Positions 603 to 55,119 of a DNA stretch of 64,000 nt are shown here, one piece after another. The notes beneath the pieces were generated by a model. The model was not told where the DNA came from, did no database searches, and saw nothing but the letters and a program-made list of their open reading frames with translations. Location: NCBI GenBank assembly GCA_023249675.1, contig JAHFCE010000003.1:111785-175784 (forward strand). The letters run 5' to 3'. This DNA comes from Elusimicrobiota bacterium. GTDB taxonomy: Bacteria > Elusimicrobiota > Elusimicrobia > UBA1565 > UBA9628. Numbering within the stretch: the stretch's first letter is position 1; each line of letters starts with the position of its first letter. Both the position numbers and the translations under genes were made by a program.

Positions 603-608
603 AGAGCG

Positions 609-1151: not shown

Positions 1152-1152
1152 A

Positions 1153-1698: not shown

Positions 1699-2177
1699 TA
1701 ACCTTCGCCCTCGTTTTACTTTTCGCGATGGCCGGTCCCACGCAAGCGGGACCGGCGCCGTCACCGGCCGCGTCAACGGGCGCCATTTTGCCGATTGGAG
1801 CTTCGACGCAGACCGTGTCGAGCCTCTACACCGGCGACCGCGTGCGCGATCCCTTTCTGCCCTCCGCGATGGGCGTCACCGGCCCGCGCCGAGTCGAGGA
1901 TGCGAAGACAGCCGGCTCTATGGTCTTGGACATTCACAGCATGCTTCTGCGCGGTATCATGAAGGACCCAAAAATCGACTACGCGCTGTTCACCTCCGAG
2001 GATGGCGGCACCTACCTTTTGCGCGGCGGCAAGCTCTACAACGAACGCAATAAGCCGGTCACGGGCATCACGGGCGTCATCAAACTCAAGCAAAAGACCG
2101 TGGAGCTCATCACGTCCGATAAGGACGTTCAGGTATTTCGTCTCGGCGAAGATGAGAAAGAAAAAGAGAAGCCCTAG
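1695..2177 (+). CDS. pilP: Type IV pilus assembly protein PilP-like (signal peptide, periplasmic)
   Basis: 160 aa with a signal peptide and a beta-rich C-terminal domain ending in a Lys/Glu-rich tail. Its position between pilO and pilQ matches the canonical pilMNOPQ order. Confidence 0.6.
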   Translation: MITFALVLLFAMAGPTQAGPAPSPAASTGAILPIGASTQTVSSLYTGDRVRDPFLPSAMGVTGPRRVEDAKTAGSMVLDIHSMLLRGIMKDPKIDYALFTSEDGGTYLLRGGKLYNERNKPVTGITGVIKLKQKTVELITSDKDVQVFRLGEDEKEKEKP

Positions 2178-2190
2178 CCGCGGAGAATTT

Positions 2191-4260: not shown

Positions 4261-4263
4261 GCG

Positions 4264-9419: not shown

Positions 9420-10408
9420 CCCGCAGGAAGGTCTTGTCGGGAGTTGTCGCCTTCGCGATCACGGGAATCTTCCTGTGGCTGGCTCTGCGCAAGGTTGAGT
9501 TCGCAGCGCTCGGCGCGGCCCTGTCGTCGGCGCGCCTGGTCTGGCTGATCCCGATGGTTGCCATCGTCTATTTTGACCTGCTCGTGCGTGCCGTGCGCTG
9601 GCGCGTCCTGCTCTCTCTCGCGCGCGTTCAGCCCGCGCCGGTGTGGGACCTCCTCAAGCTCGAGGCGATCGGTCTTGCGGTCAACAACGTCCTGCTGCTG
9701 CGCCTTGGCGAGCTTGCGCGCGCGGGCCTTGCGGCCCGCCGCCTGGGCATTCCGGCGGCCGCAGCGCTCGCGAGCGTGGCCGTCGAGCGCGCGCTCGACG
9801 TGGCCGCCCTTCTGACCATCTTCGTGCTCGCCTGCCGGTTGGCGCCCGGCATTGCGCCGGTCGCGGTCGTGCGCGCAGCGTTGCTGCTGCTCGCGGGCGC
9901 GATCGGAGCTTTGATCATCCTGGCCGCGGCGGAAAGCTCGTTGGCGCCAGGCGGTTTTGCCGAGAGCCGTCTACGCCGCTGGCCCCGAGTGCATAACTTC
10001 ATCGAGCAACTGGCGCTCGGCGCCGCGGTGCTTCGCTCTCCCGCCGCTGCCGCACAGGCCGCGTGCCTGAGCCTACTGCTGTGGACCGTGGATGCGGCTG
10101 TGTATTGGGCGGGGGCGTACGCGTTCGGCCTCGGCGGTCTGATGGACTATCCGCGGGCGGTCCTGACCTTGTCGTGGGCGGGGGCGATCTCCGCGATCCC
10201 GGCCGCGCCCGGCTCGATCGGCACGTTTGAGGCCTGCATCGTGTCGATCCTTCACACCTTCGGCGCAGCGCCCGAAACCGCTTTGGCGTACGCTTTGTTT
10301 ACGCACATGACCATGTATCTTCTGGTGACGGTGACGGGGCTCGTGTTCTTGTCGCGCGAGGGCGTGTCGCTAGCACGCCTGCGCGAGGACGTCGAGCGCG
10401 ACGCATGA
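9416..10408 (+). CDS. Lysylphosphatidylglycerol-synthase-TM-like (UPF0104, 'flippase-like') integral membrane protein
   Basis: ATG at 9416 in an ATGA overlap. About 8 TM helices. The start 'RKVEFAALGAALSSARLVWLIPMVAIVYFDLLVRAVRWRVLL' is typical of this family, which is usually partnered with GT2 polyprenyl-phosphate glycosyltransferases. Confidence 0.6.
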   Translation: MTRRKVLSGVVAFAITGIFLWLALRKVEFAALGAALSSARLVWLIPMVAIVYFDLLVRAVRWRVLLSLARVQPAPVWDLLKLEAIGLAVNNVLLLRLGELARAGLAARRLGIPAAAALASVAVERALDVAALLTIFVLACRLAPGIAPVAVVRAALLLLAGAIGALIILAAAESSLAPGGFAESRLRRWPRVHNFIEQLALGAAVLRSPAAAAQAACLSLLLWTVDAAVYWAGAYAFGLGGLMDYPRAVLTLSWAGAISAIPAAPGSIGTFEACIVSILHTFGAAPETALAYALFTHMTMYLLVTVTGLVFLSREGVSLARLREDVERDA

Positions 10409-11430
10409 AGCGCAGTCTGCTCGTCATCCTGGCGTGCCCCGTCTGCGGCGGCGACCTCACCTGCGCCCTGCTCGAAGTTGACCCGCGCCATGATGCGGAA
10501 ATCGAAGAAACGATGCTTGCCTGCAAGTTGTGCGCCCGGGAGTATCCGGTGGTCGGCGGCGTGCCGCGCCTGCGCCCTCCGAATCCCGTCCTGCGCGCGA
10601 CTGCCAAGACGCGCGAAGCGTTCGGTTGGGAGTGGCTGCGCTATCCTGGCTCGCTGTCCGGCGACAAGGATATTTTTCTTGAGGAGACGATGCTGCCGCC
10701 GCGCGAGCTCGCGGGCAAGCTCGTTCTTGACGCGGGCTGCGGCATGGGCCGCTACAGCGCCGTCGCTCTTTCTTTGGGGGCCGAGGTCGTGGCGGTCGAC
10801 ATGTCCGAGAGCCTCGAGCGCGTCGCCGCGCTCGCCCGAGATCAGCCGAAGCTTCACCCGGTCGAGGCCGATCTGCTTCATCCACCGTTCAAGAAGCGCG
10901 TCTTCGACGTCGCCTACAGCCAAGGCGTTCTGCACCACACCGCCGATACGCGTGCCGCTTTTGCGGCGGTGGCAGCGCTCGTCAAGCCGCGAGGCCTGTT
11001 CTCCGTGTGGTTGTACGGCAAGGCCGGGCGCTACTGCGATTTTGCATCAAACCCGCTCAAGCCCGGACGCGGCTGGATCGCCCGCCATCGGAGGGCCGCG
11101 TGGGTCCTCGTGCTCCTGCGTCACGCTGTCAGCGACCTCGTGCGCGCGTTCACGACGCGAATACCCATCCCCGTTGTTTACGCGCTGTGCCATCCGCTGA
11201 CCTGGCTCGGCGTCGTGCCCGGCCTGAGGTGGTTTACCTACTCTGTAGATCCGCGCTATCAGGTCCGTCTCATCGAGAACTTTGATTGGATTTCGCCGCC
11301 CTACCAGTGGCATCACACGAAAGAGGAACTGCTGCGGTGGTGCGCCGCAGAGGGCTTCTCAGTCGTCCGTGTCCTGCCGCACGGTTTGGTGCCCAAGCCC
11401 GGCGTTCTTGGCCGAAAGAATTCCCCATGA
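10405..11430 (+). CDS. Trm112-like zinc-ribbon fused to a class I SAM-dependent methyltransferase
   Basis: The N-terminal 'CPVCGG...CKLCAREYPVVGGVP' is a Trm112-like fold. 'LVLDAGCGMGRYS' is the methyltransferase motif I. ATGA overlap with the previous gene. Confidence 0.7.
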   Translation: MKRSLLVILACPVCGGDLTCALLEVDPRHDAEIEETMLACKLCAREYPVVGGVPRLRPPNPVLRATAKTREAFGWEWLRYPGSLSGDKDIFLEETMLPPRELAGKLVLDAGCGMGRYSAVALSLGAEVVAVDMSESLERVAALARDQPKLHPVEADLLHPPFKKRVFDVAYSQGVLHHTADTRAAFAAVAALVKPRGLFSVWLYGKAGRYCDFASNPLKPGRGWIARHRRAAWVLVLLRHAVSDLVRAFTTRIPIPVVYALCHPLTWLGVVPGLRWFTYSVDPRYQVRLIENFDWISPPYQWHHTKEELLRWCAAEGFSVVRVLPHGLVPKPGVLGRKNSP

Positions 11431-12557
11431 CCAAGCCGAGGACGCGGGTCGTCATGGTGAGTGCTGGTTTTTGGCCTGCCGTGGGAGGCGCGGAGCGCCA
11501 AGCGCTCGAGCTTTCGCGTGAACTGCGTGGGCGCGGCGCGGACGTGCTCGTGCTCACGCGCCGCGTCGGCTGCGCGCCATCCCGTGAGGAGGTGCATGGC
11601 GTGCCGGTGCGGCGCTTGCGCGTGTTCGGGACCGACGCCTTCGACTCCCTCTCTTTTCTCTTCGGCGCGCTTGGCTGGCTGCTCAAGCATGGCGGCGACT
11701 ATGACGCGATCCATGCTCACCTTGCCGGTTCGCCTGCGCTCGCGGCCGCCTTGGCCGGACGCTGGCTCGGCAAACCCGTGTTGATCAAGCTCGGCGGGGG
11801 GCGCGGCATTGGCGAGCTTGCCGTCTCCTCGCGCACTTATCTTGGCCGGCTCAAACTCCGCCTGCTGGCCCGGCTTCAGCCGCGCTTTCTCGCCGTAGTT
11901 CCTGATCTCGCCGCCGAGGCGCGCGAGCATCTTGGCGATGTGCTGATCGAGGTGTTGGCGAACGGAGTGGACGTGAACCGTTATAAGCCCGTTTCCCCAG
12001 AGGAGAGACAGGCCATGCGCGCGCGCCTGGGCTGGACGGGAACGGTCTTCCTTTATACGGGGAGGCTCTCGTGGGAAAAGCGCCTGCCTTGGTTCGCAAA
12101 AATATGGAATCAAGCGACGCAGGATCGCGAAGCGATCCTGGTTCTCGTTGGTGAGGGACCGGAGCGAGCCCTCATCGAGGCGTCGTTTCCGGCGGGCTCC
12201 TGCCGTATCCGCATTCTGCCGGCCGTGGACGATATTTCCGAGTTCTATGCCGCTGCCGACGCCTTCGTCCTGCCCTCCGTGTCCGAAGGACTTTCTAATT
12301 CATTGCTCGAGGCGATGGCCTCGGGACTTGCGGTGATCGCGAGTGCGGTCGGCGGAAGTGCTACGACGATCGAGGACGGCGTCACGGGGCTTTTGTTTGC
12401 GCGCGATGACGAGGCGGCTGCGGCGGCCTGCGTGCGCCGTGTGCTTGACCGGCCGGATCTGGCTGCGAAGCTGGGGGCCCATGCGAGGCGAGCCTGCGAG
12501 GAGCGGTACTCGCTGTCGCGCGTCGCGGCACGCCTTGAGGAGTTGTACACTGTCTGA
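11427..12557 (+). CDS. GT4-family (GT-B fold) glycosyltransferase
   Basis: Start at 'MTKPRTRVVMVSAGFWPAVGGAERQALEL', in an ATGA overlap. The C-terminal half carries an 'E..E'-type GT4 motif ('SEGLSNSLLEAMASGLAVIAS'). Confidence 0.8.
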   Translation: MTKPRTRVVMVSAGFWPAVGGAERQALELSRELRGRGADVLVLTRRVGCAPSREEVHGVPVRRLRVFGTDAFDSLSFLFGALGWLLKHGGDYDAIHAHLAGSPALAAALAGRWLGKPVLIKLGGGRGIGELAVSSRTYLGRLKLRLLARLQPRFLAVVPDLAAEAREHLGDVLIEVLANGVDVNRYKPVSPEERQAMRARLGWTGTVFLYTGRLSWEKRLPWFAKIWNQATQDREAILVLVGEGPERALIEASFPAGSCRIRILPAVDDISEFYAAADAFVLPSVSEGLSNSLLEAMASGLAVIASAVGGSATTIEDGVTGLLFARDDEAAAAACVRRVLDRPDLAAKLGAHARRACEERYSLSRVAARLEELYTV

Positions 12558-12563
12558 TCGAAC

Positions 12564-14486
12564 ATGTGCGGCATTTGTGGCGTCGTTTACGGCGATGGAC
12601 GTGCTCCTGATAAAGGGGTTCTCAAGCGCGCCAACGATCAGATCGCGCACCGCGGTCCCGATGACGAGGGCTACCATCTTGACGCGCCCGTCGGCCTCGC
12701 GATGCGGCGCCTTTCCATCATCGATCTCAACACCGGACATCAGCCGATCTCGTACGCGAACGAGAGCCTGTGGGTCGTCCTCAACGGCGAGATTTACAAT
12801 TATCAAGAGCTGAGGGTCGAGCTCGAGGCCAAGGGCCATCGGTTCAAGACCAAATCCGACACCGAGGTCATCCTCGCGCTGTATCAGGACGAAGGGCCTC
12901 ATTGCGTGGACAGGCTGCGCGGCATGTTCGCGCTTGCGGTGTGGGACAAGAATGCGCGCCGCCTGTTCCTGGCGCGCGACCGCATAGGCAAAAAACCGTT
13001 GTGCTACGCGGTTCGCCCGGATGGGACGCTCTTATTCGGCTCCGAGCTTCGGTGTCTGTTCTCTCTTGACCCGTCTTTGTCCCGCGAGATCGACCCGGTC
13101 GCCGTGGACATGTATCTCACTTTGCAGTACATCCCGTCGCCGCGCACGATCTACCTTTCCGCCCGCAAGCTTCCCCCGGCTCATACGTTGACCTGGCAAG
13201 ATGGCAAGATTTCTGTCGACCGCTACTGGGACCTGCCGATCGGACAGAAGCCCGTCACAACTGACTTCGAAGAGGCCAAGGGCCTACTGCGCGAGACCTT
13301 AACGGAAGCCACGCGCCTGCGCATGATCTCTGATGTGCCGCTCGGTGCGTTTTTGTCCGGCGGGGTCGACTCTTCGATCATCGTGGCGCTGATGTCGGGC
13401 CTCTCCCCCAAGCCAGTCAAGACCTTTTCGATCGGTTTTGAAGAAGAGCGTTTTTCGGAAATCAAATACGCGCGCCTCATCGCCGACCGCTACAAGACCG
13501 ATCACACGGAGTTCATCGTCAAGACCGAGATGGCCGACGTGCTTCCGAAGCTCGCCTGGCATTACGGCGAGCCCTACGCCGACGCCTCGGCCTTGCCGAG
13601 CTACTACGTCGCCCGCGAGACGCGCAAGTTCGTTACGGTGGCGCTCAACGGCGACGGCGGCGACGAGAACTTCGCCGGCTACATCCGCTATTTCGCGATG
13701 AAGGCCGCGCGGCTGACCGATGCGCTTCCCGGCCCGGTGCTGTCGGCGCTGCGCGCCGGCGCCGAGTTGTTGCCCGAGCACGATGCGCCGCTGGGCAATA
13801 TCTGGCGGGCCAAGCGCTTCCTACGCTCGATCCTGTCGAACGACATGGCCGGGCGGCATCTGAAGATGGTCGGCTACTTCTCCGAGGACGACAAGCCTGC
13901 GCTCTATTCCGAGTCGTTCAGGCTTCGCCTGAACGACTCGATCGGCGAGGCTCTGCGTTACATGCGCGCCGCGTTCGCCGCGTGCGAGGGCGAGGATTTC
14001 GTCAACCGCCTGCTGTGCGTGGACTTCAAGACCTATCTGCCGGAATGCCTGATGGCGAAGGTGGACGTGGCGACCATGGCGTGTTCGCTTGAAGGCCGCT
14101 CGCCGTTGTTGGATCACGTTTTCGTTGAAACGGCCTTCCGCATGCCGGGCGATTGGAAGCTGAAAGGGCTGCGCGGTCACAAGTACATCATGAAAGAAAC
14201 CTTCAAGGACCTCTTGCCGGAAGACATTCTCAGCCGCCCGAAGATGGGCTTCGGCATTCCGCTTGGCGCGTGGTTTCGCGGCGGGCTTAAGAACTTCTGG
14301 GAAGAGAACGTGCTGTCGTCGCAGGCGCTGGCGCGAGGCTACTTCAAAGAGAAGGCCATCCGTGGTCTTTGGAACGAGCATCAAAGTGGCCAGCGCGACC
14401 ACGGCTACCGCTTGTGGGCATTATTGATGCTGGAGTTGTTCCATCGCCATGCTGATGAGGCGCTCGCCTCGCCTATCCGAGCTTGA
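12564..14486 (+). CDS. asnB: Asparagine synthetase B-like glutamine-dependent amidotransferase
   Basis: 'MCGICGV' is the N-terminal nucleophile Cys of the class II GATase domain. It also has the PP-loop 'SGGVDSS'. Homologs of this kind occur in glycan clusters as sugar amidotransferases. Confidence 0.85.
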   Translation: MCGICGVVYGDGRAPDKGVLKRANDQIAHRGPDDEGYHLDAPVGLAMRRLSIIDLNTGHQPISYANESLWVVLNGEIYNYQELRVELEAKGHRFKTKSDTEVILALYQDEGPHCVDRLRGMFALAVWDKNARRLFLARDRIGKKPLCYAVRPDGTLLFGSELRCLFSLDPSLSREIDPVAVDMYLTLQYIPSPRTIYLSARKLPPAHTLTWQDGKISVDRYWDLPIGQKPVTTDFEEAKGLLRETLTEATRLRMISDVPLGAFLSGGVDSSIIVALMSGLSPKPVKTFSIGFEEERFSEIKYARLIADRYKTDHTEFIVKTEMADVLPKLAWHYGEPYADASALPSYYVARETRKFVTVALNGDGGDENFAGYIRYFAMKAARLTDALPGPVLSALRAGAELLPEHDAPLGNIWRAKRFLRSILSNDMAGRHLKMVGYFSEDDKPALYSESFRLRLNDSIGEALRYMRAAFAACEGEDFVNRLLCVDFKTYLPECLMAKVDVATMACSLEGRSPLLDHVFVETAFRMPGDWKLKGLRGHKYIMKETFKDLLPEDILSRPKMGFGIPLGAWFRGGLKNFWEENVLSSQALARGYFKEKAIRGLWNEHQSGQRDHGYRLWALLMLELFHRHADEALASPIRA

Positions 14487-15084
14487 GGGCGGACATAATC
14501 AGCTGGACGCCGATGGCGGCCAACAGCAAACCCATCAGGCGCGTGATGATGTTGAGTAGGGTGGAGGAGAGCTTCTTTGCGCTCGCCGCCGCGACGGTCA
14601 GCACCCAGTAGCTGAGCAAGGCCACCAAGGCGATGAGCGCGTAGAAGAGCATTTTTTGGGGAGCTCCCGACGCGCGGCCGCTGAGCACCATCGAGGTCGT
14701 GATTGCGCCGGGCCCGGCCAAGAGGGGGACCGCCAAAGGCGTAATCGCGATGTCGTCCTTGCTCATCCCTTCGGCGAACTCCTCAGGCGTCTCTCGCATC
14801 GGCGACTTCTGGGCGCGGATCATGTCGAGCGCGGACAGCAGAAGCACAAGGCCGCCGGCGATCTGGAAGGCGGGCAAAGTGATTCCGAACAGGCGGAAGA
14901 TCGCGGGTCCGAGCAGGGCGAAGGCCGACATGACGCCAGCACAGGTGATGCAGGCCGTGCGGGCCATGCGCCGCCGTTGCTCGGCGGTGTCGCGGGCCGT
15001 CATCGCGAGGAAGGTTGGGACCGCCGCGAAGGGGTCCACGATCGCGAAGAGGGATCCGAAGGTTAGAAACGCGTACTCGATCAC
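14473..15084 (-). CDS. MarC-family (UPF0056) integral membrane protein
   Basis: 203 aa with ~6 TM helices; 'LFAIVDPFAAVPTFLAMT' is the MarC signature. Its stop overlaps the asnB stop convergently by 14 bp. Confidence 0.7.
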   Translation of the reverse strand: MIEYAFLTFGSLFAIVDPFAAVPTFLAMTARDTAEQRRRMARTACITCAGVMSAFALLGPAIFRLFGITLPAFQIAGGLVLLLSALDMIRAQKSPMRETPEEFAEGMSKDDIAITPLAVPLLAGPGAITTSMVLSGRASGAPQKMLFYALIALVALLSYWVLTVAAASAKKLSSTLLNIITRLMGLLLAAIGVQLIMSALKLG

Positions 15085-15101
15085 TGGCCCATTTTACTAC
15101 A

Positions 15102-16298
15102 ATGAGGCCCATGGAGCGTGAAATCGGTGTCGGGGGCTTTGCCGTCAGCCCGCTGGCCCGGCGCTACGTTAACGAGGTTCTCGACTCAAACCGCCTGTCT
15201 TACGGCTCCTTTCATCGCCGCTTTGAGGCCGCTTTCGCCGCAGAGCACGACTCTAAGCATGCCGTGTTCTGCAATTCAGGCACCAGCGCGCTGCAGATCG
15301 CCCTTCAGGCCCTTAAAGAGAAGCATGGCTGGGACGATGGGGACGAGGTGATCGTCCCGGCCGTCACCTTCATTGCGACGTCGAACATCGTTCTGCACAA
15401 CCGCATGGTCCCGGTCTTCGCCGACGTGGAGCCGTTCACCTATACGCTCGATCCCGCGAAGTTCGAGGCCGCGATCACGCCGCGGACGCGCGCCGTGATC
15501 CCGGTCCATCTGCTCGGCCTGCCCGCCGACATGGATCCGATCTCCGCCGGCGCGCGCCGGCGCGGCCTTTCCATCATAGAAGACTCCGCCGAAACTATGT
15601 TCGCCCGCTACAAAGGGCGCAAGGTTGGATCCCTTGGCGACATCGGCTGCTTTTCGACCTACATCGCGCATTACATCGTCACCGGCGCGGGCGGCCTCGC
15701 CACGACGAATGATCTAGATCTCGCGGTTCGACTGAGAAGCTTGATGAGCCATGGCCGCGACTCGATCTACCTCTCCATCGATGACGATAAGAACGCGACC
15801 GGCGAGAAGCTCCATGAGATCGTGGCGAAGCGCTTCCAGTTCGTTTCCGTCGGCCATAGCTACCGCGCCACCGAGTTCGAAGCGGCTTTGGGCCTGGCCC
15901 AGCTTGAGGAAAAGGACGGCATCTACGCCGCGCGCACCGGCATGGCCAAGCGTCTGAGCGCCGGCCTCAAGGAATTCGAGGACAGGCTCCAACTGCCGTC
16001 CTGTCCGACCGACCGGGATCATAGTTTTATGTTGTATGGCCTCGTCGTGCGCGACCAGGATAAGACGCCGCTCGTCAATTTTCTTGAAGATCACGGCGTC
16101 GAGACGCGCGACATGCTTCCCCTGCTCAATCAGCCGGTGTACAAGAAGATGTTCGGCGACCTCGAATCCAAATATCCGGTCGCAAGGCGTCTTAACCGTT
16201 CCGCGTTCTACATCGGCTGCCATCAGTACATGACCCCGGAGGACGCCGACTACGTCGTTGAGCAATTCCGCGCCTTTTTTAAGACACGGCCTCATTGA
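15102..16298 (+). CDS. DegT/DnrJ/EryC1/StrS-family PLP-dependent sugar aminotransferase (ArnB/PglE-like)
   Basis: 'FCNSGTSALQIALQAL' and a downstream PLP-lysine region are characteristic. The start is taken at ATG 15102 (ORF 15015..16298). Confidence 0.85.
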   Translation: MRPMEREIGVGGFAVSPLARRYVNEVLDSNRLSYGSFHRRFEAAFAAEHDSKHAVFCNSGTSALQIALQALKEKHGWDDGDEVIVPAVTFIATSNIVLHNRMVPVFADVEPFTYTLDPAKFEAAITPRTRAVIPVHLLGLPADMDPISAGARRRGLSIIEDSAETMFARYKGRKVGSLGDIGCFSTYIAHYIVTGAGGLATTNDLDLAVRLRSLMSHGRDSIYLSIDDDKNATGEKLHEIVAKRFQFVSVGHSYRATEFEAALGLAQLEEKDGIYAARTGMAKRLSAGLKEFEDRLQLPSCPTDRDHSFMLYGLVVRDQDKTPLVNFLEDHGVETRDMLPLLNQPVYKKMFGDLESKYPVARRLNRSAFYIGCHQYMTPEDADYVVEQFRAFFKTRPH

Positions 16299-16299
16299 C

Positions 16300-17004
16300 A
16301 TGGCGCCGAGCGAGGCCTTCGATTTGACGGTGGTGGTGCCCGCGCTCAACGAGGAGGCCTCTCTGCGTCAGGTTCTGCCGCGCCTGCGGGAGACCTTCCA
16401 GCGCCTGAGCGTGCGCGGCGAGATTCTCGTCGTGGACGGTCGTTCGAAGGACGCGACGGTCGCCGTCGCCGAAGCGGGCGGCGCGCGCGTGTTCACCCAG
16501 AGAGGCCGCGGCCTGGGCGGAGCCCTGCGCGAGGGCCTTCTGGCCGCGGCCGCCCCCTGGATCGCCATCGTGGACGCCGACGGCTCGCACCCGCCCGAGG
16601 TTTTGGCGGACATGTGGAGCAGGAGGAACGAGGCCGACCTCATCATTGCCTCTCGGTACGTCCCGGGGGGGTCGGCTGTGATGGGACTCGCGCGCCAGGT
16701 TCTGAGTCGTTCGCTGAACCTGGTCTCGTGCTATGTACTCGATCTGCCCGCGCGCGATTCCTCCGGCGGCTTCCGCCTGTATCGCGCCGCGCTCGCCCGT
16801 GCGGCATGCGCGGACTCCGCCGCAAACGACTTTACCGTCCAACAGGAGCTGCTCGTCGCCGTTCTATCGCGCGGCGGCCGAGTTTTGGAGGTTCCATTCC
16901 GCTACGAGTCCCGTATCGATGGCGCATCCAAGGCCTCGGCCGTGCGCCTGGCGCCGGCGTATATTCGCATGCTGCTCAAGCTCCGGGCCCGAAGACACGC
17001 ATGA
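16300..17004 (+). CDS. GT2 polyprenyl-phosphate sugar synthase (DPM1/ArnC/GtrB-like), soluble type
   Basis: 'VVVPALNEE...VVDGRSKD...VDADGSHPPE' is the GT-A DXD region typical of Dpm1/ArnC. It starts 1 bp after the DegT stop. Confidence 0.75.
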   Translation: MAPSEAFDLTVVVPALNEEASLRQVLPRLRETFQRLSVRGEILVVDGRSKDATVAVAEAGGARVFTQRGRGLGGALREGLLAAAAPWIAIVDADGSHPPEVLADMWSRRNEADLIIASRYVPGGSAVMGLARQVLSRSLNLVSCYVLDLPARDSSGGFRLYRAALARAACADSAANDFTVQQELLVAVLSRGGRVLEVPFRYESRIDGASKASAVRLAPAYIRMLLKLRARRHA

Positions 17005-17696
17005 CGACTTTGACGCGCCTGGAGACGCTTTCCACGGCCGACCGATTCAATGACGAAGTGTGGAACAAAGTGCAGTCCTTCATTGGGGCCGACATCCTGG
17101 AGGTCGGCATGGGCATCGGAATCTTCACGGAGAAGCTGCTGAGCCGGGGGAAGGTCTGCGGCGTGGACATCGCCCCCGAATTCGTGGAAGTAGCGCGCCG
17201 TCGTCTCGGTGAGCGGCGGGGCTTTTCCTCTCTTGTCGCCGATATGGGGGGCGCCGTGTTGCCCGACTCCCTGCGCGCTCACGCCTTTGATACCATCGTC
17301 TGTATGAACGTTCTCGAGCATATCGAAGACGATCGCGGGACATTGTCGCGTTTTCGCGGCCTGCTCAGGCCGGGGGGCAAGCTCGTGCTCGTGGTGCCCG
17401 CTTACCGATGGCTGTACAATCCGCTGGATGCCCACGACGGCCATTTTCGGCGCTACGAGCGCGCGGAACTCAACGAGAGGCTTCGGACCGCCGGTTTTGA
17501 CCTCATCCATGAGTCGCGATTCAATTTATTCGGCATCGTCGGCTGGTTTCTCAATGGAACGATTTTGCGCCGCCAAGATCTGCCGTCGGAGCAGATGGGG
17601 CTGTTTAACAAGGTCGCCCCGTTTCTTTTTTGGCTTGAACATCTGATCGGCCCGCCTCTCGGCCTCTCGCTTCTCGCCGTCGGGGCCAGGCCGTGA
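17001..17696 (+). CDS. Class I SAM-dependent methyltransferase (Methyltransf_11/12-like)
   Basis: 'ILEVGMGIGIFTEKL' is motif I. The ATG at 17001 makes an ATGA overlap. The upstream ORF extension 16614..17000 is rejected. Confidence 0.75.
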   Translation: MTTLTRLETLSTADRFNDEVWNKVQSFIGADILEVGMGIGIFTEKLLSRGKVCGVDIAPEFVEVARRRLGERRGFSSLVADMGGAVLPDSLRAHAFDTIVCMNVLEHIEDDRGTLSRFRGLLRPGGKLVLVVPAYRWLYNPLDAHDGHFRRYERAELNERLRTAGFDLIHESRFNLFGIVGWFLNGTILRRQDLPSEQMGLFNKVAPFLFWLEHLIGPPLGLSLLAVGARP

Positions 17697-18850
17697 ACGA
17701 AAGTCTTTCCATTGTCATTCCGGCCTACAACGAAGAAGACTCTGTTGACGGCATATTAAAGCGCTGCCTCGAGGCGAGGGCTGTGCTGATGAAGGATGCG
17801 GGGCTTTCCGGAGTGGAAGTCGTGATTGTCGATGACGGCTCCCGTGACAGGACGCAGGAGAGGGCCTCCCGCTGGACCGAGGCTAAACTGGTCGTCCATG
17901 AGAAGAATAAGGGCTATGGCGCCGCGCTAATGACCGGCTTTCGCGCTTCTTCGGGCGATCTTCTGTCGTTTCTCGATGCGGACGGCACCTGCGATCCCCT
18001 GGCTTTCAAGGATCTCATACTCGCCCTCCGCCGCGAGAAGGCGGATATGGCGGTCGGAGCTCGTTTGCATAGGGACTCCGAGATGCCCATCATCAGAGCC
18101 TTTGGCAACCGCCTGTACGCTCTTTTGCTGCAAAGCCTGACCGGCAGGCGTGTGACCGACGCCGCGAGCGGCATGCGCGTATTCAAGCGCGCGCTCCTGC
18201 CGCGCCTGGCTCCCCTGCCGACGGGCCTGCACTTCACGCCGGCGATGACTGCACGCGTCGTCTGCATGGGCGCTCTCTTGATCGAGCGCCCGATTCCTTA
18301 TTCCGAGCGCGTCGGTCGGTCGAAGCTCTCCGTCTTGCGCGACGGCGTGCGCTTCCTGCGCGTGATCCTCGGCACCGTCTTCGCCTACTTCCCGATGAGA
18401 GTGTTCGCTCCTTTAGCCGCCGCATGCTTTGCGTTGGCGGCGGGCCTGGTCCTTATGCCTGTGCGCGTCTACCTACGCGTCTCGATGCTTGAGGACTGGA
18501 TGATTTACCGCCTGCTCACCGTGCTGACATTGTCGGTGTGCGGAGCGATCTTTGCCGCGATCGGCTTGCTCGCGCAAAAAGCCTCGAACGCCGCCCTTGG
18601 GCGGCCGGGCTCGTGGCTGGACCATCCGTCTGTGCGCGAGGCGTCGGGCTTGGCCGGCGGCGTGCTGTGGTTGAGCGGCGTCGGCGTCAATTGGCCGACC
18701 GCGACTGAGTACGCAATGACCGGGCACATCACTCGTCACTGGGCCTGGGTGCTCATCGGCGCGCTGGCCGTTATCTGCGGCACGGTCCTTATTTCACTGT
18801 CGATCGCGCTCGGCGCTTTCGCGCATCTGCCTTCCCGAGAGGACGCGTGA
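17693..18850 (+). CDS. GT2 polyprenyl-phosphate glycosyltransferase with C-terminal transmembrane helices (GtrB/ArnC/CsbB-like)
   Basis: 'LSIVIPAYNEE...VVIVDDGSRD...FLDADGTCDP', followed by 3-4 C-terminal TM helices. GTG start overlapping the upstream stop. Confidence 0.8.
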   Translation: MNESLSIVIPAYNEEDSVDGILKRCLEARAVLMKDAGLSGVEVVIVDDGSRDRTQERASRWTEAKLVVHEKNKGYGAALMTGFRASSGDLLSFLDADGTCDPLAFKDLILALRREKADMAVGARLHRDSEMPIIRAFGNRLYALLLQSLTGRRVTDAASGMRVFKRALLPRLAPLPTGLHFTPAMTARVVCMGALLIERPIPYSERVGRSKLSVLRDGVRFLRVILGTVFAYFPMRVFAPLAAACFALAAGLVLMPVRVYLRVSMLEDWMIYRLLTVLTLSVCGAIFAAIGLLAQKASNAALGRPGSWLDHPSVREASGLAGGVLWLSGVGVNWPTATEYAMTGHITRHWAWVLIGALAVICGTVLISLSIALGAFAHLPSREDA

Positions 18851-19827
18851 GCTTCTGGACCCGCAAGAAGGTTCTTGTCGCTGGGGGTGGCGGTTTTATT
18901 GGCAGTCACGTGGTTGAGCGGCTCATCCGGGAGCACCGCGGAGTCCGCGTGACCGTGGCCGCCCGCATGACGCCTGAGAACAAGCGCAATCTCGCGGCCG
19001 TCATCAAGGACGTCCGCATTATGAAGGCCGATCTGCGCGATCCTGCAGTCTGCCGCCGCGCCTGCAAGGGCCAGGACGTGGTTCTCAACCTCGCCGGCGT
19101 CATCGGCGGGGTCGGCTACAACAGCCGACATCATGCCAGCTTGTTTCGCGACAACATGTCTCTTGCCATTAACATGATCGAGGCCGCGCGTCTTGAGGGG
19201 GTCTCCCGCTACCTCGTTGTGAGCACAGCCTGCGTTTATCCGCGCAACTGCGCCATTCCCACGCCGGAGACGGAAGGGTTTCTCGATGAGCCGGAGAAAA
19301 CGAATAGGGGATATGGATGGGCCAAACGCATGGCCGAGTACCTGGGCAAAGCGTACGCCGATGAGTATGGCATGGAGATCGCGATCGTGCGTCCCTACAA
19401 TGCTTACGGTCCGCGCGATCATTTCGACCCGGAGAAGTCCCATGTCATCGCGGCCCTTGTGCGCCGCGTCTGCATGGGGGAGAACCCGCTGACGGTCTGG
19501 GGAGACGGCAGATCGACGCGCGCGTTCTTGTATGCCGAGGACTTCGCGCGCGGCCTTCTCGCTGCGGCTGCAAAGCATCCGAAGGCCGATCCGGTCAACA
19601 TCGGCTCCTCCGATGAGGTCTCAATCAAGGAGCTGGCCAAGGCCGTCTTGCGGGCGGCCGGAGCCGAAAAAATGAAGCTCGTGTTCGATCCTTCCCAACC
19701 TTCGGGCCAGCCCCGGCGGGCCTGCGACACGACGAAGTCCAAGACAGTGCTCGGCTTTACGGCAACGACATCTCTTGATGAGGGCCTGCGGCGCACGGTC
19801 GCGTGGTACCGGGAGAACTTGCTGTGA
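18847..19827 (+). CDS. NAD-dependent epimerase/dehydratase (extended SDR; UDP-GlcA decarboxylase / GDP-fucose synthase-like)
   Basis: It has the 'VAGGGGFIGSHV' Rossmann motif, the catalytic 'YGWAK' motif and 'RPYNAYGPRD'. Confidence 0.8.
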   Translation: MSFWTRKKVLVAGGGGFIGSHVVERLIREHRGVRVTVAARMTPENKRNLAAVIKDVRIMKADLRDPAVCRRACKGQDVVLNLAGVIGGVGYNSRHHASLFRDNMSLAINMIEAARLEGVSRYLVVSTACVYPRNCAIPTPETEGFLDEPEKTNRGYGWAKRMAEYLGKAYADEYGMEIAIVRPYNAYGPRDHFDPEKSHVIAALVRRVCMGENPLTVWGDGRSTRAFLYAEDFARGLLAAAAKHPKADPVNIGSSDEVSIKELAKAVLRAAGAEKMKLVFDPSQPSGQPRRACDTTKSKTVLGFTATTSLDEGLRRTVAWYRENLL

Positions 19828-20552
19828 GAGGCAAGAGACTTTTGGTCCTGCTGACCTTCAACGAGGCCGAGGCCCTGCCTAAAATTTTCGACCGACTTCC
19901 ATTGTCCGCGGCCGATGAAGTTCTCGCCGTGGACGGCGGCTCGAAGGACGGCACGATTGAGTTCCTGCGGTCGAAGGGTCTGAAGGTCCTCAATCAACCG
20001 CGTCCCGGCCGGGGCGTGGCTTTCCGCTTGGCGCTTGAGAGCACGGACGCCGATACGATCTGCTACTACAGCCCTGACGGCAATGAGGACCCCGGCGACA
20101 TTCCAAAAATATTCGAGAAGATCGAAGCGGAAGGCCAGGATCTCGTCGTCGCCTCGCGCATGATGAACGGGGCTTACAATGAGGAGGACGTCCACTGGTG
20201 GCGCCCGCGCAAGTGGGTCAACCAGCTCTTCACGCTGGCGGCCAACCTGCTCTGGAACCGCGGGCCTTACGTGGAGGACACGATCAACGGCTTTCGCGCG
20301 GTGCGCGCCGATTCGCTGCGCCGCTGCGCTTGCGATGCCGACGGCTTTCCGATCGAGTACCAGATGTCGATTCGCATGATGAAGCTTGGATGCGTGATCG
20401 GCGAGATGCCGACGCATGAGTACCCGCGCCTCGGGGGGCGGAGCACCGCCGAATCGTGGCCCACGGGAGTGATCTTCGTCAAAACCCTCCTGCGCGAGAT
20501 GTCGATGGGCCACCGCGTCGGGCGCAATGGAACGGTCGGCGGCCATGGCTGA
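19803..20552 (+). CDS. GT2 glycosyltransferase (DPM1-like, soluble)
   Basis: 'LLVLLTFNEAEAL...VLAVDGGSKDGT' is a GT-A fold motif. The start may be GTG 19824, which would overlap the upstream stop. Confidence 0.7.
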   Translation: MVPGELAVRGKRLLVLLTFNEAEALPKIFDRLPLSAADEVLAVDGGSKDGTIEFLRSKGLKVLNQPRPGRGVAFRLALESTDADTICYYSPDGNEDPGDIPKIFEKIEAEGQDLVVASRMMNGAYNEEDVHWWRPRKWVNQLFTLAANLLWNRGPYVEDTINGFRAVRADSLRRCACDADGFPIEYQMSIRMMKLGCVIGEMPTHEYPRLGGRSTAESWPTGVIFVKTLLREMSMGHRVGRNGTVGGHG

Positions 20553-23136
20553 CCAACGCCGCGACCTGCGCGCCGAGGCGGAAACCGCCGCTCATCGAGC
20601 GATCATCGCCTGGCTTCCGCTCCTCTACCTGCTGATCTCCTCCCTCTTCTTTCTGCGCACTTACGACTCCGCGCAGGTGAAGATATCGATGATGCAGATG
20701 GGCGGTCTCGGGCTGCTGACGTTGTGGCTCGTGCGCCTGGCTGTCGCCGGTCGCCATGCCCTCAACAAGGAAGACTTGGTCTGCCTGTCCCCGTTTCTCG
20801 CCTGCCTTCTTTGGGGCGTGTTCTCCTACCTGAAGTCGCCGTATCACATGGCATCCACCGACTTCTTCCTGCGTCACCTCTTCTACATGATCGTGGCGCT
20901 GATCACGATTTATGAGTTTGACGAGGCGGCGGTTTCACGCCTTTTCAAGATTATGATCGGGACCGCTTGGATTGCGATCGGCTACGGCGCCCTTCAGTTC
21001 GTGGACAACGCGGCCTTCCCGCGCGGCATCGGCAAGGGCATCGACCCCTTCGTTTGGCGCGGTGCGTTCGGCGACCGCGTATTCTCAACGTATGGAAACC
21101 CGAATTTCTACGGCGACTTCCTCGTCATCATGTTCCCAATCCTGCTCACGCAGTGGTTCAAGACGCGGCGCTGGAGCCTTGTCGTCTTGATTGGCCTTCT
21201 CCTGCTCAGCCTCGTCAAGACGGGCACGAAGGGCGCGTGGCTTGGCTTCGCGCTGGTCTGCGCGATCTTCGGGGTGATCGCCTTCGTCTTCTTCCCGGAC
21301 CAAACCAAGAACTATCGCAAGCAGGTCCTTGGCATCACGGGAGGTTTGGTTCTGGGCTTCATCGGTTACACGGCCAAGGATCTGACCTCGCGCGTCGTCT
21401 CGATCAATTTCCGTCTGTTCACCTGGGAGGCGACCTGGGAGATGATCCGCACCCAGCCATGGACCGGCACGGGCATTGGCTCCTTCCCTCCGATCTACCC
21501 GGCCTTTCGCCGTCCCGCGATCTTTCATATTGAGGGCAAGCACAACACCGAGACCGATCACGCCGAGAACGAATACCTCGAGCAGTTTTTCGACAACGGC
21601 ATCTTGGGTTTCGGCATCTTCCTCTGGCTCATCGTCAGCACCTTGGTCGTTGGCTTCCGCTCGTTAGGCCAGCTCACGATGACGGCCATGCTCAAGGACG
21701 GCCGTCCGCCGCCGCGCGCCTTCGACCTGATTGGCGTGGTCGTCTCGTTCATGGGCATGCTCGGGCACAACTGCTTTGACGTCAGCCTGCGCTTTGTGTC
21801 CTCCGGAGTATATTTGGGTCTGCTGTCTGGCCTCATCGTCAACGTCGCGCGCGGCAAGGCGCTCTACGAGCTCCATGCGCGGCCGGCGGTCCCGGCCGCC
21901 GACCCCGCCGTGGAGGCGTCCCTGTGGGCCACCGTGTCGGAGATGCTGATTTGGCCCCTGCGACTTGCCGCTGCCGGCGGCGTCCTCTACCTCGCTTTCT
22001 TCAAGGGCTGGGCTCAGCTGCGCCAGGTTCCGTTCGGCGGCATGTTCGGAGAGTTCTGCCTGCTCCAGGGCCCGCTCTCGCGCGTGCCCGGAGGCGGGGA
22101 GCTGCTGCAATGGTGGCTTGCCTGGGGCGTCTTCGCGGGGTGCATGCTTTGGCTCGGCGGGGTCATGATCCGCCTGTGTCTTCTCGCGGAGAATCCCGTC
22201 GTGTCCTTGATCGTGCTCGCGATGCTCTCGCCCCTGTACCAGTTTTGGGGCTACTTCAAGGCGGACATTCACCATAATATCGCGATCTATTTTTCGAAAG
22301 AACGCCAATGGGAGCCGGCCGTCGCCAACTACTTGATCGTCAACAAACTCAACCCAGATTTCGTGATGTCGAAGTACTTTCTTGGCAACGTCTTCAACGA
22401 CCGTTTCACCATGACGAAAGCGTATCTCCCCAATTGGGGCGATACGGGCAACGTCCCGCACGACGACTACGAGCGCGCGATGTATTGGTACGACGAAGTC
22501 CGCAAGCTTGCGCCGAACTACGTTCAGATGCATCACCAGATCGGCAACCTGCACCTGCGCCGGGCCGAGTGGGCGACCAACAACGGGCGTCCCGATGAGG
22601 CGGAAAAATATCTCGAGATGGCGTTGGTCCGCTTCAAGCTCTACTCTCAGGTTGACCCTGTCTTCGCGCCGAACTACTACCGTATGGCGCAGGTCTATAT
22701 GATCCGCAAACAGTACGATCTCGCGGTGAAGACCTACCAGGCCCTCATCGACGCGCAGCGCTGCGCCGCAGACCCGTCCTTGCTCGCGAAGGCCTGGCGG
22801 CGCAACACCATCCTCTCCTATCAGCCCTATGAGCAGGTGAACGGTCGGTGGATTCATCGTCACGTCGGCGCGGATTACCCGCATGAGTCCGCCGAGGTTT
22901 ATACGAGCATGGCCAACGCCTTGTTCATGGGCGGCCGCTTCGAGGAGGCCGAGCGGGCCTATCGCACCGCCCTCTCATATGACCCGGCCTTCGATATGGC
23001 CAAGAAGAATCTTGATGTCACCTACCACCGCGCCCAGCAAGAGGGCCGTCTCAAGCCGGCGACGGCGAATGCCGGCGCAAAGGCCGTTCCTGGAACGCCG
23101 GTTCAGACGGGCTGGATGATTATTCCGAAGAAGTAG
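20527..23136 (+). CDS. Large polytopic membrane protein with an O-antigen ligase/polymerase (Wzy_C) domain and C-terminal TPR repeats
   Basis: 869 aa. 'TKGAWLGFALV...HNTETDHAENEYLEQFFDNGILGFGIFLWL' is the Wzy_C core. The C-terminal ~300 aa are TPR-like. An alternative start is ATG 20545. Confidence 0.7.
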   Translation: MERSAAMADQRRDLRAEAETAAHRAIIAWLPLLYLLISSLFFLRTYDSAQVKISMMQMGGLGLLTLWLVRLAVAGRHALNKEDLVCLSPFLACLLWGVFSYLKSPYHMASTDFFLRHLFYMIVALITIYEFDEAAVSRLFKIMIGTAWIAIGYGALQFVDNAAFPRGIGKGIDPFVWRGAFGDRVFSTYGNPNFYGDFLVIMFPILLTQWFKTRRWSLVVLIGLLLLSLVKTGTKGAWLGFALVCAIFGVIAFVFFPDQTKNYRKQVLGITGGLVLGFIGYTAKDLTSRVVSINFRLFTWEATWEMIRTQPWTGTGIGSFPPIYPAFRRPAIFHIEGKHNTETDHAENEYLEQFFDNGILGFGIFLWLIVSTLVVGFRSLGQLTMTAMLKDGRPPPRAFDLIGVVVSFMGMLGHNCFDVSLRFVSSGVYLGLLSGLIVNVARGKALYELHARPAVPAADPAVEASLWATVSEMLIWPLRLAAAGGVLYLAFFKGWAQLRQVPFGGMFGEFCLLQGPLSRVPGGGELLQWWLAWGVFAGCMLWLGGVMIRLCLLAENPVVSLIVLAMLSPLYQFWGYFKADIHHNIAIYFSKERQWEPAVANYLIVNKLNPDFVMSKYFLGNVFNDRFTMTKAYLPNWGDTGNVPHDDYERAMYWYDEVRKLAPNYVQMHHQIGNLHLRRAEWATNNGRPDEAEKYLEMALVRFKLYSQVDPVFAPNYYRMAQVYMIRKQYDLAVKTYQALIDAQRCAADPSLLAKAWRRNTILSYQPYEQVNGRWIHRHVGADYPHESAEVYTSMANALFMGGRFEEAERAYRTALSYDPAFDMAKKNLDVTYHRAQQEGRLKPATANAGAKAVPGTPVQTGWMIIPKK

Positions 23137-24142
23137 CCGCGGCGAGATCATCGACTGCACGGCCTGCCTGGCGCCAAGCCTCGGGCACGAAGGCGGGGTG
23201 GTAGCGGGTCCTCAAGAACCAGGTCCGTAGGCTCTTGGCCCAGCCCAGCGGCGCGATCGGCAGAAAAGTCCGCCAATAGGCCCAGGTGCCCTTGGCCCGG
23301 CGGCCTTGGATCAGAATCAGCAGCTCCCGAGACTGTGCGGGTTTGAGCGCCTTCCACAGATAGCCGGCAACTTCCAAGGCGATTCTCTCGCGTGCCTTCG
23401 CCTGGACATCGGGGCGCGCGCCGGAGCTTTTGAGCGCCACCATCGACTCCGAAAAATCACGCTCATGGTCGCGAGTGATCTGGCTTTCGTGGATGAAGCG
23501 CACCGCCAACGGTTCGCGCAGGACGCCGACGGGAAGGCCATCCTTGAGCATGCGGGCGTAGAGTTCCGTGTCCTCCAGAATTTTTAGATCTTCGCGAAAA
23601 AATCCGGTCTTGAGGAACGCCCCCCGGCGCACCGCCACCATGGTCGTGACGTACGGCAGGAAGGCATCGCCCACCGCGTAATGGCCGGGCACGACACCTT
23701 CGGGGATATCCCGTTTAGGATCGAAGAGCAGGCCTATGATGCGTCCGTAGCGATGAAGATACGCGTTGGTGAACCAGAATCCTGTCTCCGGCCGTTTCTC
23801 GATCGCTTCGCGAAGACGTTCCAGCCGCAGGGGCAAAAAAAGGTCGTCGGAATCCAAGAAGCATATCCATTCTCCTTGCGCCTCTCTGATCGCTTGATTG
23901 CGGCAGGCGTGCTGGCCGCGATTCTTCTGGTTGACCAGCACGTGGACGCGGGCATCGCCTTGGAAGCGGCCCAAGCGTGCGGCGGTGTCATCGGTCGAAC
24001 CGTCGTCAACGATGAAGAGCTCAAAGTCGGTCTCAGTCTGGGCGAGAGCCGAGCGGATGGCGGTACGGACCGATGCGGACCGGTTATAGGTTGGGATGAC
24101 GATGGAGAACAACGGCGGCCGTCTGCGCGGCGGCTCGCTCAC
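23120..24142 (-). CDS. GT2-family glycosyltransferase
   Basis: 'LFSIVIPTYNRSASV...FIVDDGSTDDT...FLDSDD'. Its 3' end overlaps the preceding + strand gene convergently by 17 bp. Confidence 0.8.
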   Translation of the reverse strand: MSEPPRRRPPLFSIVIPTYNRSASVRTAIRSALAQTETDFELFIVDDGSTDDTAARLGRFQGDARVHVLVNQKNRGQHACRNQAIREAQGEWICFLDSDDLFLPLRLERLREAIEKRPETGFWFTNAYLHRYGRIIGLLFDPKRDIPEGVVPGHYAVGDAFLPYVTTMVAVRRGAFLKTGFFREDLKILEDTELYARMLKDGLPVGVLREPLAVRFIHESQITRDHERDFSESMVALKSSGARPDVQAKARERIALEVAGYLWKALKPAQSRELLILIQGRRAKGTWAYWRTFLPIAPLGWAKSLRTWFLRTRYHPAFVPEAWRQAGRAVDDLAAATSSE

Positions 24143-54959: not shown

Positions 54960-55119
54960 CGCCTCAGTATGCCCGGCGCACCCCGCGCCCGCGAGAGTCT
55001 TGCGGCCCAAACCGTCTAGGTCTGATATCTGAACGCAAACGCCCCGAAAGACCCATGCCTTTTAAGTCGGTTGCTGGTAGCATACGCTGTCGCTGAAATC
55101 CAAACTTTGAGGTTTTAAA

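Follow-up and report, generated by a model that had tools for sequence, protein, structure and literature searches.

The locus described here raises the question of which sugar would be made by an operon that combines a DegT-family enzyme with several glycosyltransferases, and of how that sugar would reach the cell envelope. The analysed stretch, hereafter the window, comprises 64,000 nucleotides (nt) of Elusimicrobiota bacterium GCA_023249675.1 (contig JAHFCE010000003.1, 111,785-175,784, forward strand), a high-GC genome of an uncultured member of the phylum, and the operon occupies positions 15111-23136 of this window. The original prediction had interpreted the DegT gene and its neighbours as an Arn-like amino-sugar pathway, in which a short-chain dehydrogenase/reductase (SDR) oxidises or decarboxylates the sugar, DegT transaminates it, a family 2 glycosyltransferase (GT2) loads it onto undecaprenyl phosphate (Und-P), and a YfhO-like GT-C enzyme transfers it. 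The evidence considered below somewhat favours another answer, namely that the operon joins a colitose-like 3,6-dideoxy sugar route, not an amino-sugar route, to lipid-carrier glycosylation. In this proposal, the dehydratase/reductase half, which draws on catalytic residues, clade membership and genomic context, is considered quite probable, and the lipid-loading half, which draws on fold, synteny and gene fusions, is favoured by a modest degree. Throughout the text, L numbers designate the loci of relatives, and P numbers designate protein cluster representatives or database proteins.

The operon and its gene order

Genes were called from a listing of open reading frames (ORFs) together with Pfam and NCBIfam scans, which took in ORFs of at least about 180-200 amino acids (aa). 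The operon, located on the forward strand, opens with the gene of the DegT-family enzyme dependent on pyridoxamine or pyridoxal 5′-phosphate (PMP/PLP) (15111-16298, within ORF 15015-16298; Pfam DegT_DnrJ_EryC1, 314 bits). It is followed by gt2a, encoding a small soluble DPM1-like GT2 (16300-17004, within ORF 16258-17004; Glycos_transf_2, 72 bits), and by mtB, encoding a class I S-adenosylmethionine-dependent methyltransferase of 231 aa (17001-17696, within ORF 16614-17696; Methyltransf_11/12/23/25). Next come gt2tm, whose product is a GT2 of the ArnC/GtrB type with C-terminal transmembrane (TM) helices (17693-18850; Glycos_transf_2, 109 bits), and the gene of an extended SDR of the GDP-fucose-synthase/ColC type (18847-19827; Epimerase/GDP_Man_Dehyd). 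The small DPM1-like GT2 encoded by gt2c (19824-20552) is the partner of the DegT enzyme and of the SDR across phyla, as discussed below, and the operon is closed by the gene of a Wzy_C membrane protein, similar to O-antigen ligases/polymerases, with C-terminal TPR repeats (20527-23136; Wzy_C and TPR). The order of DegT, soluble GT2, methyltransferase, TM-containing GT2 and epimerase/dehydratase given in the original prediction was confirmed, with the five genes on the forward strand as placed, and the third small transferase gene, gt2c, had been overlooked.

The DegT gene likely starts at 15111, for which a 395-aa database protein (P0001) was 100% identical; the ATG at 15102 is an alternative, and the 398-aa version that it would produce had no exact-sequence match in the database look-up. 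The likely true starts of gt2a and of the methyltransferase gene are 16300 and 17001, respectively; on an identical contig, mtB is annotated with this same length of 231 aa. The TGA stop of DegT ends at 16298 and the ATG of gt2a lies at 16300, which leaves the 1-bp gap that had been noticed previously, and the four junctions that follow consist of 4-nt overlaps between start and stop codons (ATGA or GTGA). No space for additional small genes was left in the operon, and scans for promoters and terminators returned none above shuffle expectation. DegT, the three GT2s, the methyltransferase and the SDR are real genes placed in one tight operon. Since the same gene order recurs in the genomes of about 20 Elusimicrobiota species representatives, this arrangement is not attributable to chance, and the Wzy_C-TPR gene was also kept downstream of gt2c in Elusimicrobiota.

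A conserved translational coupling between DegT and gt2a through the 1-bp junction was also considered, and it was rejected because most Elusimicrobiota relatives carry an ordinary 318-aa GT2 between both genes (e.g., L008:11188-12144). This GT2 is missing from the window and from L015, L026 and L027, and the junction is therefore understood as a local deletion state. In L009, the position of the methyltransferase gene was occupied by a replacement of about 4 kb.

A histidine in place of the catalytic lysine

The change of a lysine to a histidine is the key difference between sugar aminotransferases and nucleotide-sugar 3-dehydratases, such as ColD, E1 and SpnQ (PMC8987622). In the HMMER alignment, His187 of the window DegT (FSTYIAH) fell on Lys186 of the GDP-perosamine synthase of Caulobacter, a column marked by the K186A entry 3dr4. 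The same residue aligned with His188 of ColD from E. coli O55 (FSTYIAH versus FSSFYSH), to which DegT is 27% identical over 381 residues, and both proteins share an insert of about 18 aa that is absent from perosamine synthase; the colC-colD reference pair was taken from E. coli O55:H7 CB9615. Aminotransferase activity has been reported for an S187N/H188K variant of ColD.

All 84 orthologs with an identity of 50% or more keep this histidine, and they were distributed among Elusimicrobiota, Micrarchaeota, Latescibacterota, Gemmatimonadota, Acidobacteriota, Chloroflexota and Proteobacteria. When 1.84 billion protein cluster representatives were searched exhaustively, a histidine occupied the column in 127 of the best 150, with a lysine in 18 others, all of them at no more than 38% identity. 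Lys-type paralogs found within the same loci retained SFxxxK. The nearest homologs of DegT (78-100% identity) came in every case from Elusimicrobia metagenome-assembled genomes (MAGs), and the closest orthologs outside the phylum (60-64% identity; L031-L033, L037, L042, L066) were observed in MAGs of Micrarchaeota, which belong to the DPANN archaea; inter-domain transfer or mis-binning is possible for the latter.

The four-Cys [2Fe-2S] motif of E1 and SpnQ was not present in DegT, among whose orthologs only C180 and C370 are conserved, and the Pfam scans recognised no gene for an E3-like reductase in the window. For these two reasons, E1/E3 chemistry was rejected and the enzyme was assigned to a ColD-like subclass. 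DegT is most likely ColD-like in its mechanism, without being a ColD ortholog, and is predicted to act as a 3-dehydratase of a nucleoside diphosphate (NDP)-linked 4-keto-6-deoxyhexose, with GDP as the expected nucleotide. It appears to group essentially with enzymes acting on GDP- or NDP-4-keto-6-deoxyhexoses, which speaks against the Arn-type transaminase that had been supposed. Because of the histidine, a large and widespread clade is probably mis-annotated, including its fusions to GT2, SDR and methyltransferase domains, as the whole of it inherits the name "DegT aminotransferase" from automatic annotation.

Some relatives displayed further variations of this chemistry. A second His-type DegT, E1-like and with the motif SFYPAHH, adjoins an E3-like NAD_binding_1 reductase in L054 (18027-20050) and in L078 (near 14020), which implies that the same locus also carries a CDP-type 3,6-dideoxyhexose route. 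In a Thiotrichaceae MAG (L063:11061-12443), the His-type DegT, hereafter DegT(His), is followed by a sugar C-methyltransferase of the TylC3 type (Methyltransf_14), more SDRs and Gmd, a context from which a 4-keto-3,6-dideoxy intermediate may be C-methylated in some lineages. In addition, P0380 presented an apparent intein-like insertion within its DegT domain.

The SDR and its putative GDP-sugar substrate

The SDR encoded next to gt2c matched GDP-L-fucose synthase (GFS) best (164 bits), followed by GDP-mannose 3,5-epimerase (GME; 154 bits), whereas the score for UXS was 119 bits. Its catalytic motifs include a cysteine in STACVYP, a YxxxK of the form YGWAK, and a GFS-type histidine in SHVIAAL, where GME has a lysine. 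These motifs aligned with GFS (8du0) and with E. coli ColC, to which the SDR is 28% identical, and were kept in 26 orthologs. The SDR is consequently of the GFS/ColC type, a predicted epimerase/4-reductase and not an ArnA/UXS decarboxylase, and the oxidative or decarboxylating role formerly given to it gave way to a classification among the enzymes of the GDP-mannose pathway. In E. coli, colC and colD are also neighbours with a similar overlap.

The nature of the substrate was addressed by genomic context, and tblastn searches for Gmd, ManB and ManC, with queries from E. coli and Latescibacterota, covered the window and its close relatives. Among the neighbours of the DegT(His) clade, a true Gmd (52-62% identical to that of E. 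coli) was the one seen most often; in 16 loci it was found no more than 5 kb from the DegT(His) ortholog, which it often adjoined directly (e.g., L036, L040, L041, L077, L079, L080 and L085). Together with His187 and the catalytic residues of the SDR, this proximity indicates a route from GDP-4-keto-6-deoxymannose to a 3,6-dideoxyhexose, with no amino sugar involved. In L004 and L005, DegT was followed by a PseB-like 4,6-dehydratase and a sugar-1-phosphate nucleotidyltransferase.

Glycosyltransferases and the lipid-carrier half

The products of gt2a, gt2c and gt2tm aligned with one another and with dolichyl-phosphate mannose synthase (DPMS) and ArnC across the whole catalytic domain, whereas ordinary GT2s, such as the one encoded by gt2d, matched DPM1-like GT2s over the N-terminal half only. 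The best match of gt2tm in the PDB was ArnC (76 bits, residues 4-296, which include the TM region), followed by DPMS and GtrB, and that of gt2a was the Pyrococcus DPMS 5mlz (60 bits). For gt2c, DPMS was both the sole PDB match at the sequence level and the clear best fold match, and its NCBIfam matches were AglJ, a dolichyl-phosphate-hexose transferase model and PpgS, not GpgS. Three C-terminal TM segments were predicted in gt2tm, in agreement with the original prediction, and none in gt2a or gt2c. A DAD motif was observed in gt2a and gt2tm, and gt2c harbours an invariant SPDGNED, that is, a non-canonical DXD. By their alignments and best matches, the three proteins are polyprenyl-phosphate glycosyltransferase-like, and a role in lipid loading is a supported prediction for them. 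In L004, L005 and L025, a gt2a homolog (57% identical) was fused to PMT_2, and PMT_2 genes were located near the module in L038, L046, L054, L059 and L085.

Two candidates for the final transfer are encoded upstream of the operon, on the same strand. The first, unkA (5626-7581), encodes a 651-aa membrane glycosyltransferase of the GT-C fold, and the second, unkB (7578-9419), is its full-length paralog (hhalign probability 99.8%, E 3e-29, 567 columns) and therefore a second GT-C candidate. Neither of these proteins of about 620-650 aa, both with multiple TM segments, had a family match in the Pfam/NCBIfam scans, and no PMT_2/PMT match of the kind that an ArnT (GT83/GT39) would give was obtained for the multi-TM proteins of the window locus. 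The product of unkA had been named YfhO in the original prediction, of which the GT-C fold stood and the family name did not: the YfhO profile PF09586 gave 6.8 bits (E 2.5) for the window protein against a cut-off of 28.5 bits, and just 3 of the 120 listed homologs carried a precomputed YfhO match. The GT-C fold of unkA is established, and its membership in the YfhO family is not. The next gene (9338-10408, forward strand, start uncertain) encodes an LPG_synthase_TM membrane protein that resembles the flippase domain of MprF (PF03706, 132 bits) and is possibly the flippase of the system; no GtrA, SMR or MATE flippase was recognised in the locus.

Synteny and gene fusions across phyla

Beyond Elusimicrobiota, the conserved core consists of the SDR, DegT(His) and gt2c. 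In Latescibacterota, these genes form a stand-alone three-gene island amid unrelated genes, and in L054 the order is a DegT(His)-GT2-like fusion, the SDR, gt2c, and then a PMT_2 GT-C with an NPCBM domain. An in-frame fusion of DegT(His) to a C-terminal GT2-like domain was found in L035, L038, L039, L046, L047, L054 (9962-11881) and L059, which belong to different phyla. The GT2-like domain of these seven fusions is degenerate in its nucleotide-binding motifs, with both VDGGSxDGT and SPDGNED lost; it is probably non-catalytic and may serve for docking.

Other fusions were found among the cluster representatives. P0457 combines DegT(His) with an intact gt2c ortholog (44% identity), P0364 brings together a gt2a-like GT2 (38% identity), a methyltransferase and DegT(His) in one protein, P0428 and P0491 are further fusions of a methyltransferase with DegT(His), and P0375, P0386 and P0394 are SDR-DegT(His) fusions. 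From these independent fusions, it is argued that the dehydratase, the SDR, the DPM1-like GT2s and the methyltransferase act in one pathway. The types of fusion observed in P0364, P0375, P0386, P0394, P0428, P0457, P0491 and P0362 include DegT-methyltransferase, methyltransferase-DegT and DegT-GT4 arrangements, and in the fused SDR domains the catalytic histidine of GFS and ColC is replaced by Asp or Asn (SDRLIP/SNRLIP).

Weighing the alternatives

A number of observations weigh against a colitose-like route coupled to a lipid carrier. Among solved structures, DegT scored highest with perosamine synthase (206 bits), followed by E1 (146), ArnB (143) and ColD (~130), and its top NCBIfam match was RfbH, with 219 bits, under the cut-off of 423 bits. 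The identity of DegT and the SDR to ColD (27%) and ColC (28%), respectively, is low, and SpnQ, which is also a His-type enzyme, can transaminate in vitro (PMC8987622). The SDR reached 183.7 bits with the Fcl model NF047922, whose cut-off is 500. Moreover, Gmd, ManC and any 4,6-dehydratase were absent from the 64-kb window and from the close Elusimicrobiota loci, except L029, and ManB was likewise not found in the window or in close relatives; without Gmd and ManC in the window, the supply of substrate from elsewhere in the genome is an assumption. Finally, no GT-C gene adjoins the islands of Latescibacterota.

The strongest competitor, regarded as possible but doubtful, is a cytoplasmic cluster for an O-antigen, capsule or S-layer glycan, in which Leloir GT2s would add the dideoxyhexose to a repeat unit on undecaprenyl diphosphate, the Wzy_C proteins would polymerise or ligate it, and the GT-C proteins would be unrelated. 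Sugars of the colitose type are normally added by Leloir glycosyltransferases in O-antigen clusters, as in E. coli O55, and the locus does contain a GT4, an ordinary GT2, two Wzy_C proteins and an AsnB-type amidotransferase, to which relatives add Wzx; gt2c, in turn, lacks TM helices and departs from the canonical DXD. However, the alignment of gt2a, gt2c and gt2tm with DPMS and ArnC over the whole catalytic domain, which ordinary GT2s achieve over the N-terminal half only, and the clear preference of gt2c for DPMS among structures are not what such a cluster would lead one to expect. Fusions of a GT2 to PMT_2, as well as PMT_2 genes in the neighbourhood, point in the same direction in several phyla, and the three-gene island of Latescibacterota, which includes no acceptor-building genes, is a better fit for a module of donor synthesis. 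In addition, the Pfam scans revealed no initiating phosphoglycosyltransferase in the window.

A second possibility, considered quite unlikely, is that the sugar is remodelled at the lipid stage, with a GT2 making a polyprenyl-phosphate-hexose on which DegT(His), the SDR and the methyltransferase would act afterwards. Epimerisation on Und-P has a precedent (PMC11127046), an analogy may be drawn with DprE1/E2 or with the Und-P-ribofuranose epimerase, fusions of DegT(His) to GT2-like domains and to methyltransferases recur, and the window has no Gmd. On the other hand, the commonest neighbour of the DegT(His) clade is precisely Gmd, which acts on GDP-mannose, and ColD, ColC and GFS are all GDP-sugar enzymes; the degeneration of the fused GT2-like domain in seven loci is also more suggestive of docking than of a first catalytic step.

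The Arn-like amino-sugar pathway is judged highly improbable, although the same four superfamilies as in ArnA (dehydrogenase domain), ArnB, ArnC and ArnT are present, ArnC is the best solved match of gt2tm, ArnB appears among the PDB matches of DegT with 143 bits, and SpnQ-type His enzymes are able to transaminate in vitro. The Schiff-base lysine is missing in DegT and its whole clade, the SDR has the residues of GFS/ColC and scores 119 bits with UXS versus 164 with GFS, neither a formyltransferase domain nor a deformylase was found in any annotated ORF of the window, and the adjacency of Gmd in relatives leads to GDP-6-deoxy sugars. Homology to the Arn enzymes was not sustained by profiles either, since the equivalog models remained far under their cut-offs: ArnA (NF005998) gave 38.5 bits for the SDR against 777, ArnB (NF008658) 154 bits for DegT against 631, and ArnC (NF007986) 79.9 bits for gt2tm and 28 bits for gt2a against 529. 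In this way, the Arn-like logic survived in its lipid-carrier half, given the best matches of the GT2s, the GT-C fold and the PMT_2 fusion, and not in its amino-sugar half, given His187 and the GFS/ColC-type SDR. Least probable of all is the formation of a soluble glycoside, in which gt2c would use a small phosphorylated molecule, such as 3-phosphoglycerate, as the acceptor of the sugar, in the manner of GpgS/MpgS, as the models matched by gt2c are AglJ, the dolichyl-phosphate-hexose transferase and PpgS rather than GpgS, DPMS is its sole sequence-level PDB match and its best fold match, and GT-C genes recur beside the module.

Proposed pathway and its implications

For the colitose-like route coupled to a lipid carrier, the following sequence of events is proposed. 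The substrate would be GDP-4-keto-6-deoxy-D-mannose, supplied by a Gmd encoded outside the window. DegT, as its sequence strongly suggests, would bind this substrate through PMP, with His187 in the place of the lysine, and would remove the C3 hydroxyl in the fashion of ColD to yield a GDP-4-keto-3,6-dideoxyhexose. As neither an Fe-S motif nor an E3-type reductase is present, PMP is proposed to be regenerated from glutamate. The SDR, to judge from its catalytic residues, would then epimerise C5 and reduce C4, generating a colitose-like GDP-3,6-dideoxy-L-hexose, and the methyltransferase could modify the sugar. Fold, synteny and fusions suggest that gt2c would move the dideoxyhexose onto polyprenyl phosphate, and other sugars would be loaded by gt2a and by the ArnC/GtrB-like gt2tm. 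The sugars would then be flipped, possibly by the LPG_synthase_TM protein, and passed by the two GT-C paralogs to a glycan or protein of the envelope at the outer face of the inner membrane. Since pilMNOPQ genes are located immediately upstream, pilins are, as a matter of speculation, one acceptor candidate.

A broader proposal is put forward tentatively, at less than even confidence: a phylum-spanning module, in which a His-type DegT is combined with a GFS-like SDR, a DPM1-like GT2 and, in many cases, a methyltransferase, would produce a polyprenyl-phosphate-linked, possibly methylated 3,6-dideoxyhexose, which GT-C enzymes would use outside the cytoplasm to glycosylate type IV pilins or glycans of the envelope. 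The module was found in Elusimicrobiota, Latescibacterota, Chloroflexota, Gemmatimonadota, Alphaproteobacteria and DPANN archaea, and its cultured carriers include strains of Rhodoplanes and Xanthobacteraceae.

The repertoire of three-component periplasmic glycosylation comprises glucose, galactose, N-acetylglucosamine, 4-amino-4-deoxy-L-arabinose and pentofuranoses, and, to our knowledge, 3,6-dideoxy sugars have so far been known just as O-antigen residues added by Leloir enzymes. If gt2c indeed loads a dideoxyhexose onto polyprenyl phosphate, this repertoire would gain the 3,6-dideoxy sugars, and the product would be the first lipid-monophosphate dideoxyhexose donor. Literature searches on lipid-linked dideoxyhexose donors and on glycosylation in Elusimicrobia returned nothing relevant; colitose-type chemistry and three-component periplasmic glycosylation are known separately, and no report combining both was found. 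The proposal also provides a testable hypothesis on the uncharacterised envelope of uncultured Elusimicrobiota.

Genomic surroundings

Within the window, the upstream run of forward-strand genes begins with those of type IV pilus assembly (9-4260), in which the ORF and Pfam scans identified a pilM fragment, genes similar to pilN, pilO and pilP, and the gene of an AMIN-domain PilQ secretin. Directly after the secretin gene lies that of a Wzy_C-family membrane protein (4264-5625; 48 bits), so that the pil genes run from position 9 onward, on the same strand and without a break, into the Wzy_C gene and then into both GT-C paralogs, which suggests a link between pilus assembly and glycosylation. 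Downstream of the LPG_synthase_TM gene, the same strand encodes a protein with Trm112p-like and class I methyltransferase Pfam matches (10405-11430), a GT4 glycosyltransferase (ORF 11286-12557, the true start being probably near 11427; Glycos_transf_1/Glyco_transf_4) and an AsnB-type glutamine amidotransferase (12564-14486; Asn_synthase, 330 bits). The latter scored 633 bits with the XrtA/PEP-CTERM amidotransferase model, under its cut-off of 817.

Between both forward-strand operons, the reverse strand encodes a MarC/NAAT-family membrane protein (14473-15084; MarC, 182 bits), whose start is only about 26 bp from that of DegT. Its position is kept in relatives, with the orientation flipped in L003, L016 and L030. 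At the other end, gt2d (23120-24142, reverse strand) encodes an ordinary GT2 (117 bits with Pfam GT2) and is convergent with the operon.

Outside the two glycan operons and gt2d, the window carries unrelated housekeeping genes. Two genes of patatin-like phospholipases were observed (29906-30859, reverse, and 39225-41255, forward), one of which also bears a fused cNMP-binding domain, and large ORFs with no Pfam match were located on the reverse strand at 41227-42816, 42813-43559, 52821-55010 and 57211-58293. Very long ORFs antisense to real genes, such as that of 1240 aa at 2878-6600 on the reverse strand, are an artefact of the high GC content and not genes.

Comparison with known systems

The E1/E3 (RfbH/DdhC) pathway of CDP-3,6-dideoxyhexoses shares with the window a His-type PMP enzyme. 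It differs by the 4-Cys [2Fe-2S] centre and by the E3 gene, neither of which is present in the window, and relatives have Gmd as the neighbour instead of CDP-glucose 4,6-dehydratase. The Arn pathway, which provides lipid A with 4-amino-4-deoxy-L-arabinose, has in common with the window an SDR, a DegT fold, a GT2 and a GT-C enzyme, as well as the same carrier logic. However, the window DegT has no catalytic lysine, its SDR is not a UDP-glucuronic acid decarboxylase, and the substrate is probably a GDP-6-deoxyhexose.

The three-component systems GtrA/GtrB/GtrC, CsbB/GtcA/YfhO and Und-P-pentofuranose/GT136 resemble the window in that a GT2 of the polyprenyl-phosphate type and a GT-C are encoded in one locus, and one of the window GT2s has TM helices of the GtrB/ArnC type. 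Unlike these systems, the window encodes three candidate polyprenyl-phosphate glycosyltransferases and two GT-C paralogs, has an LPG_synthase_TM protein instead of a recognised GtrA, SMR or MATE flippase, and embeds a deoxy-sugar enzyme pair whose predicted product, a dideoxyhexose donor, is without precedent in the literature searched.

The colitose enzymes ColD and ColC of E. coli O55 are comparable in their main features, as they combine a DegT fold with a histidine for the lysine and no Fe-S motif, and a GFS-type SDR with Cys and His acid/base residues. In both cases, the two genes are tightly linked, being fused in some relatives of the window, and Gmd is a neighbour in many of these relatives. 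The identity is nevertheless of 27-28%, and the window DegT belongs to a separate large His-type clade with the motif FSTYxAH, in a window where Gmd and ManC are missing. Furthermore, the partner transferase in the window is a DPM1-like GT2 and not a GT11 colitosyltransferase, and the predicted sugar is perhaps methylated.

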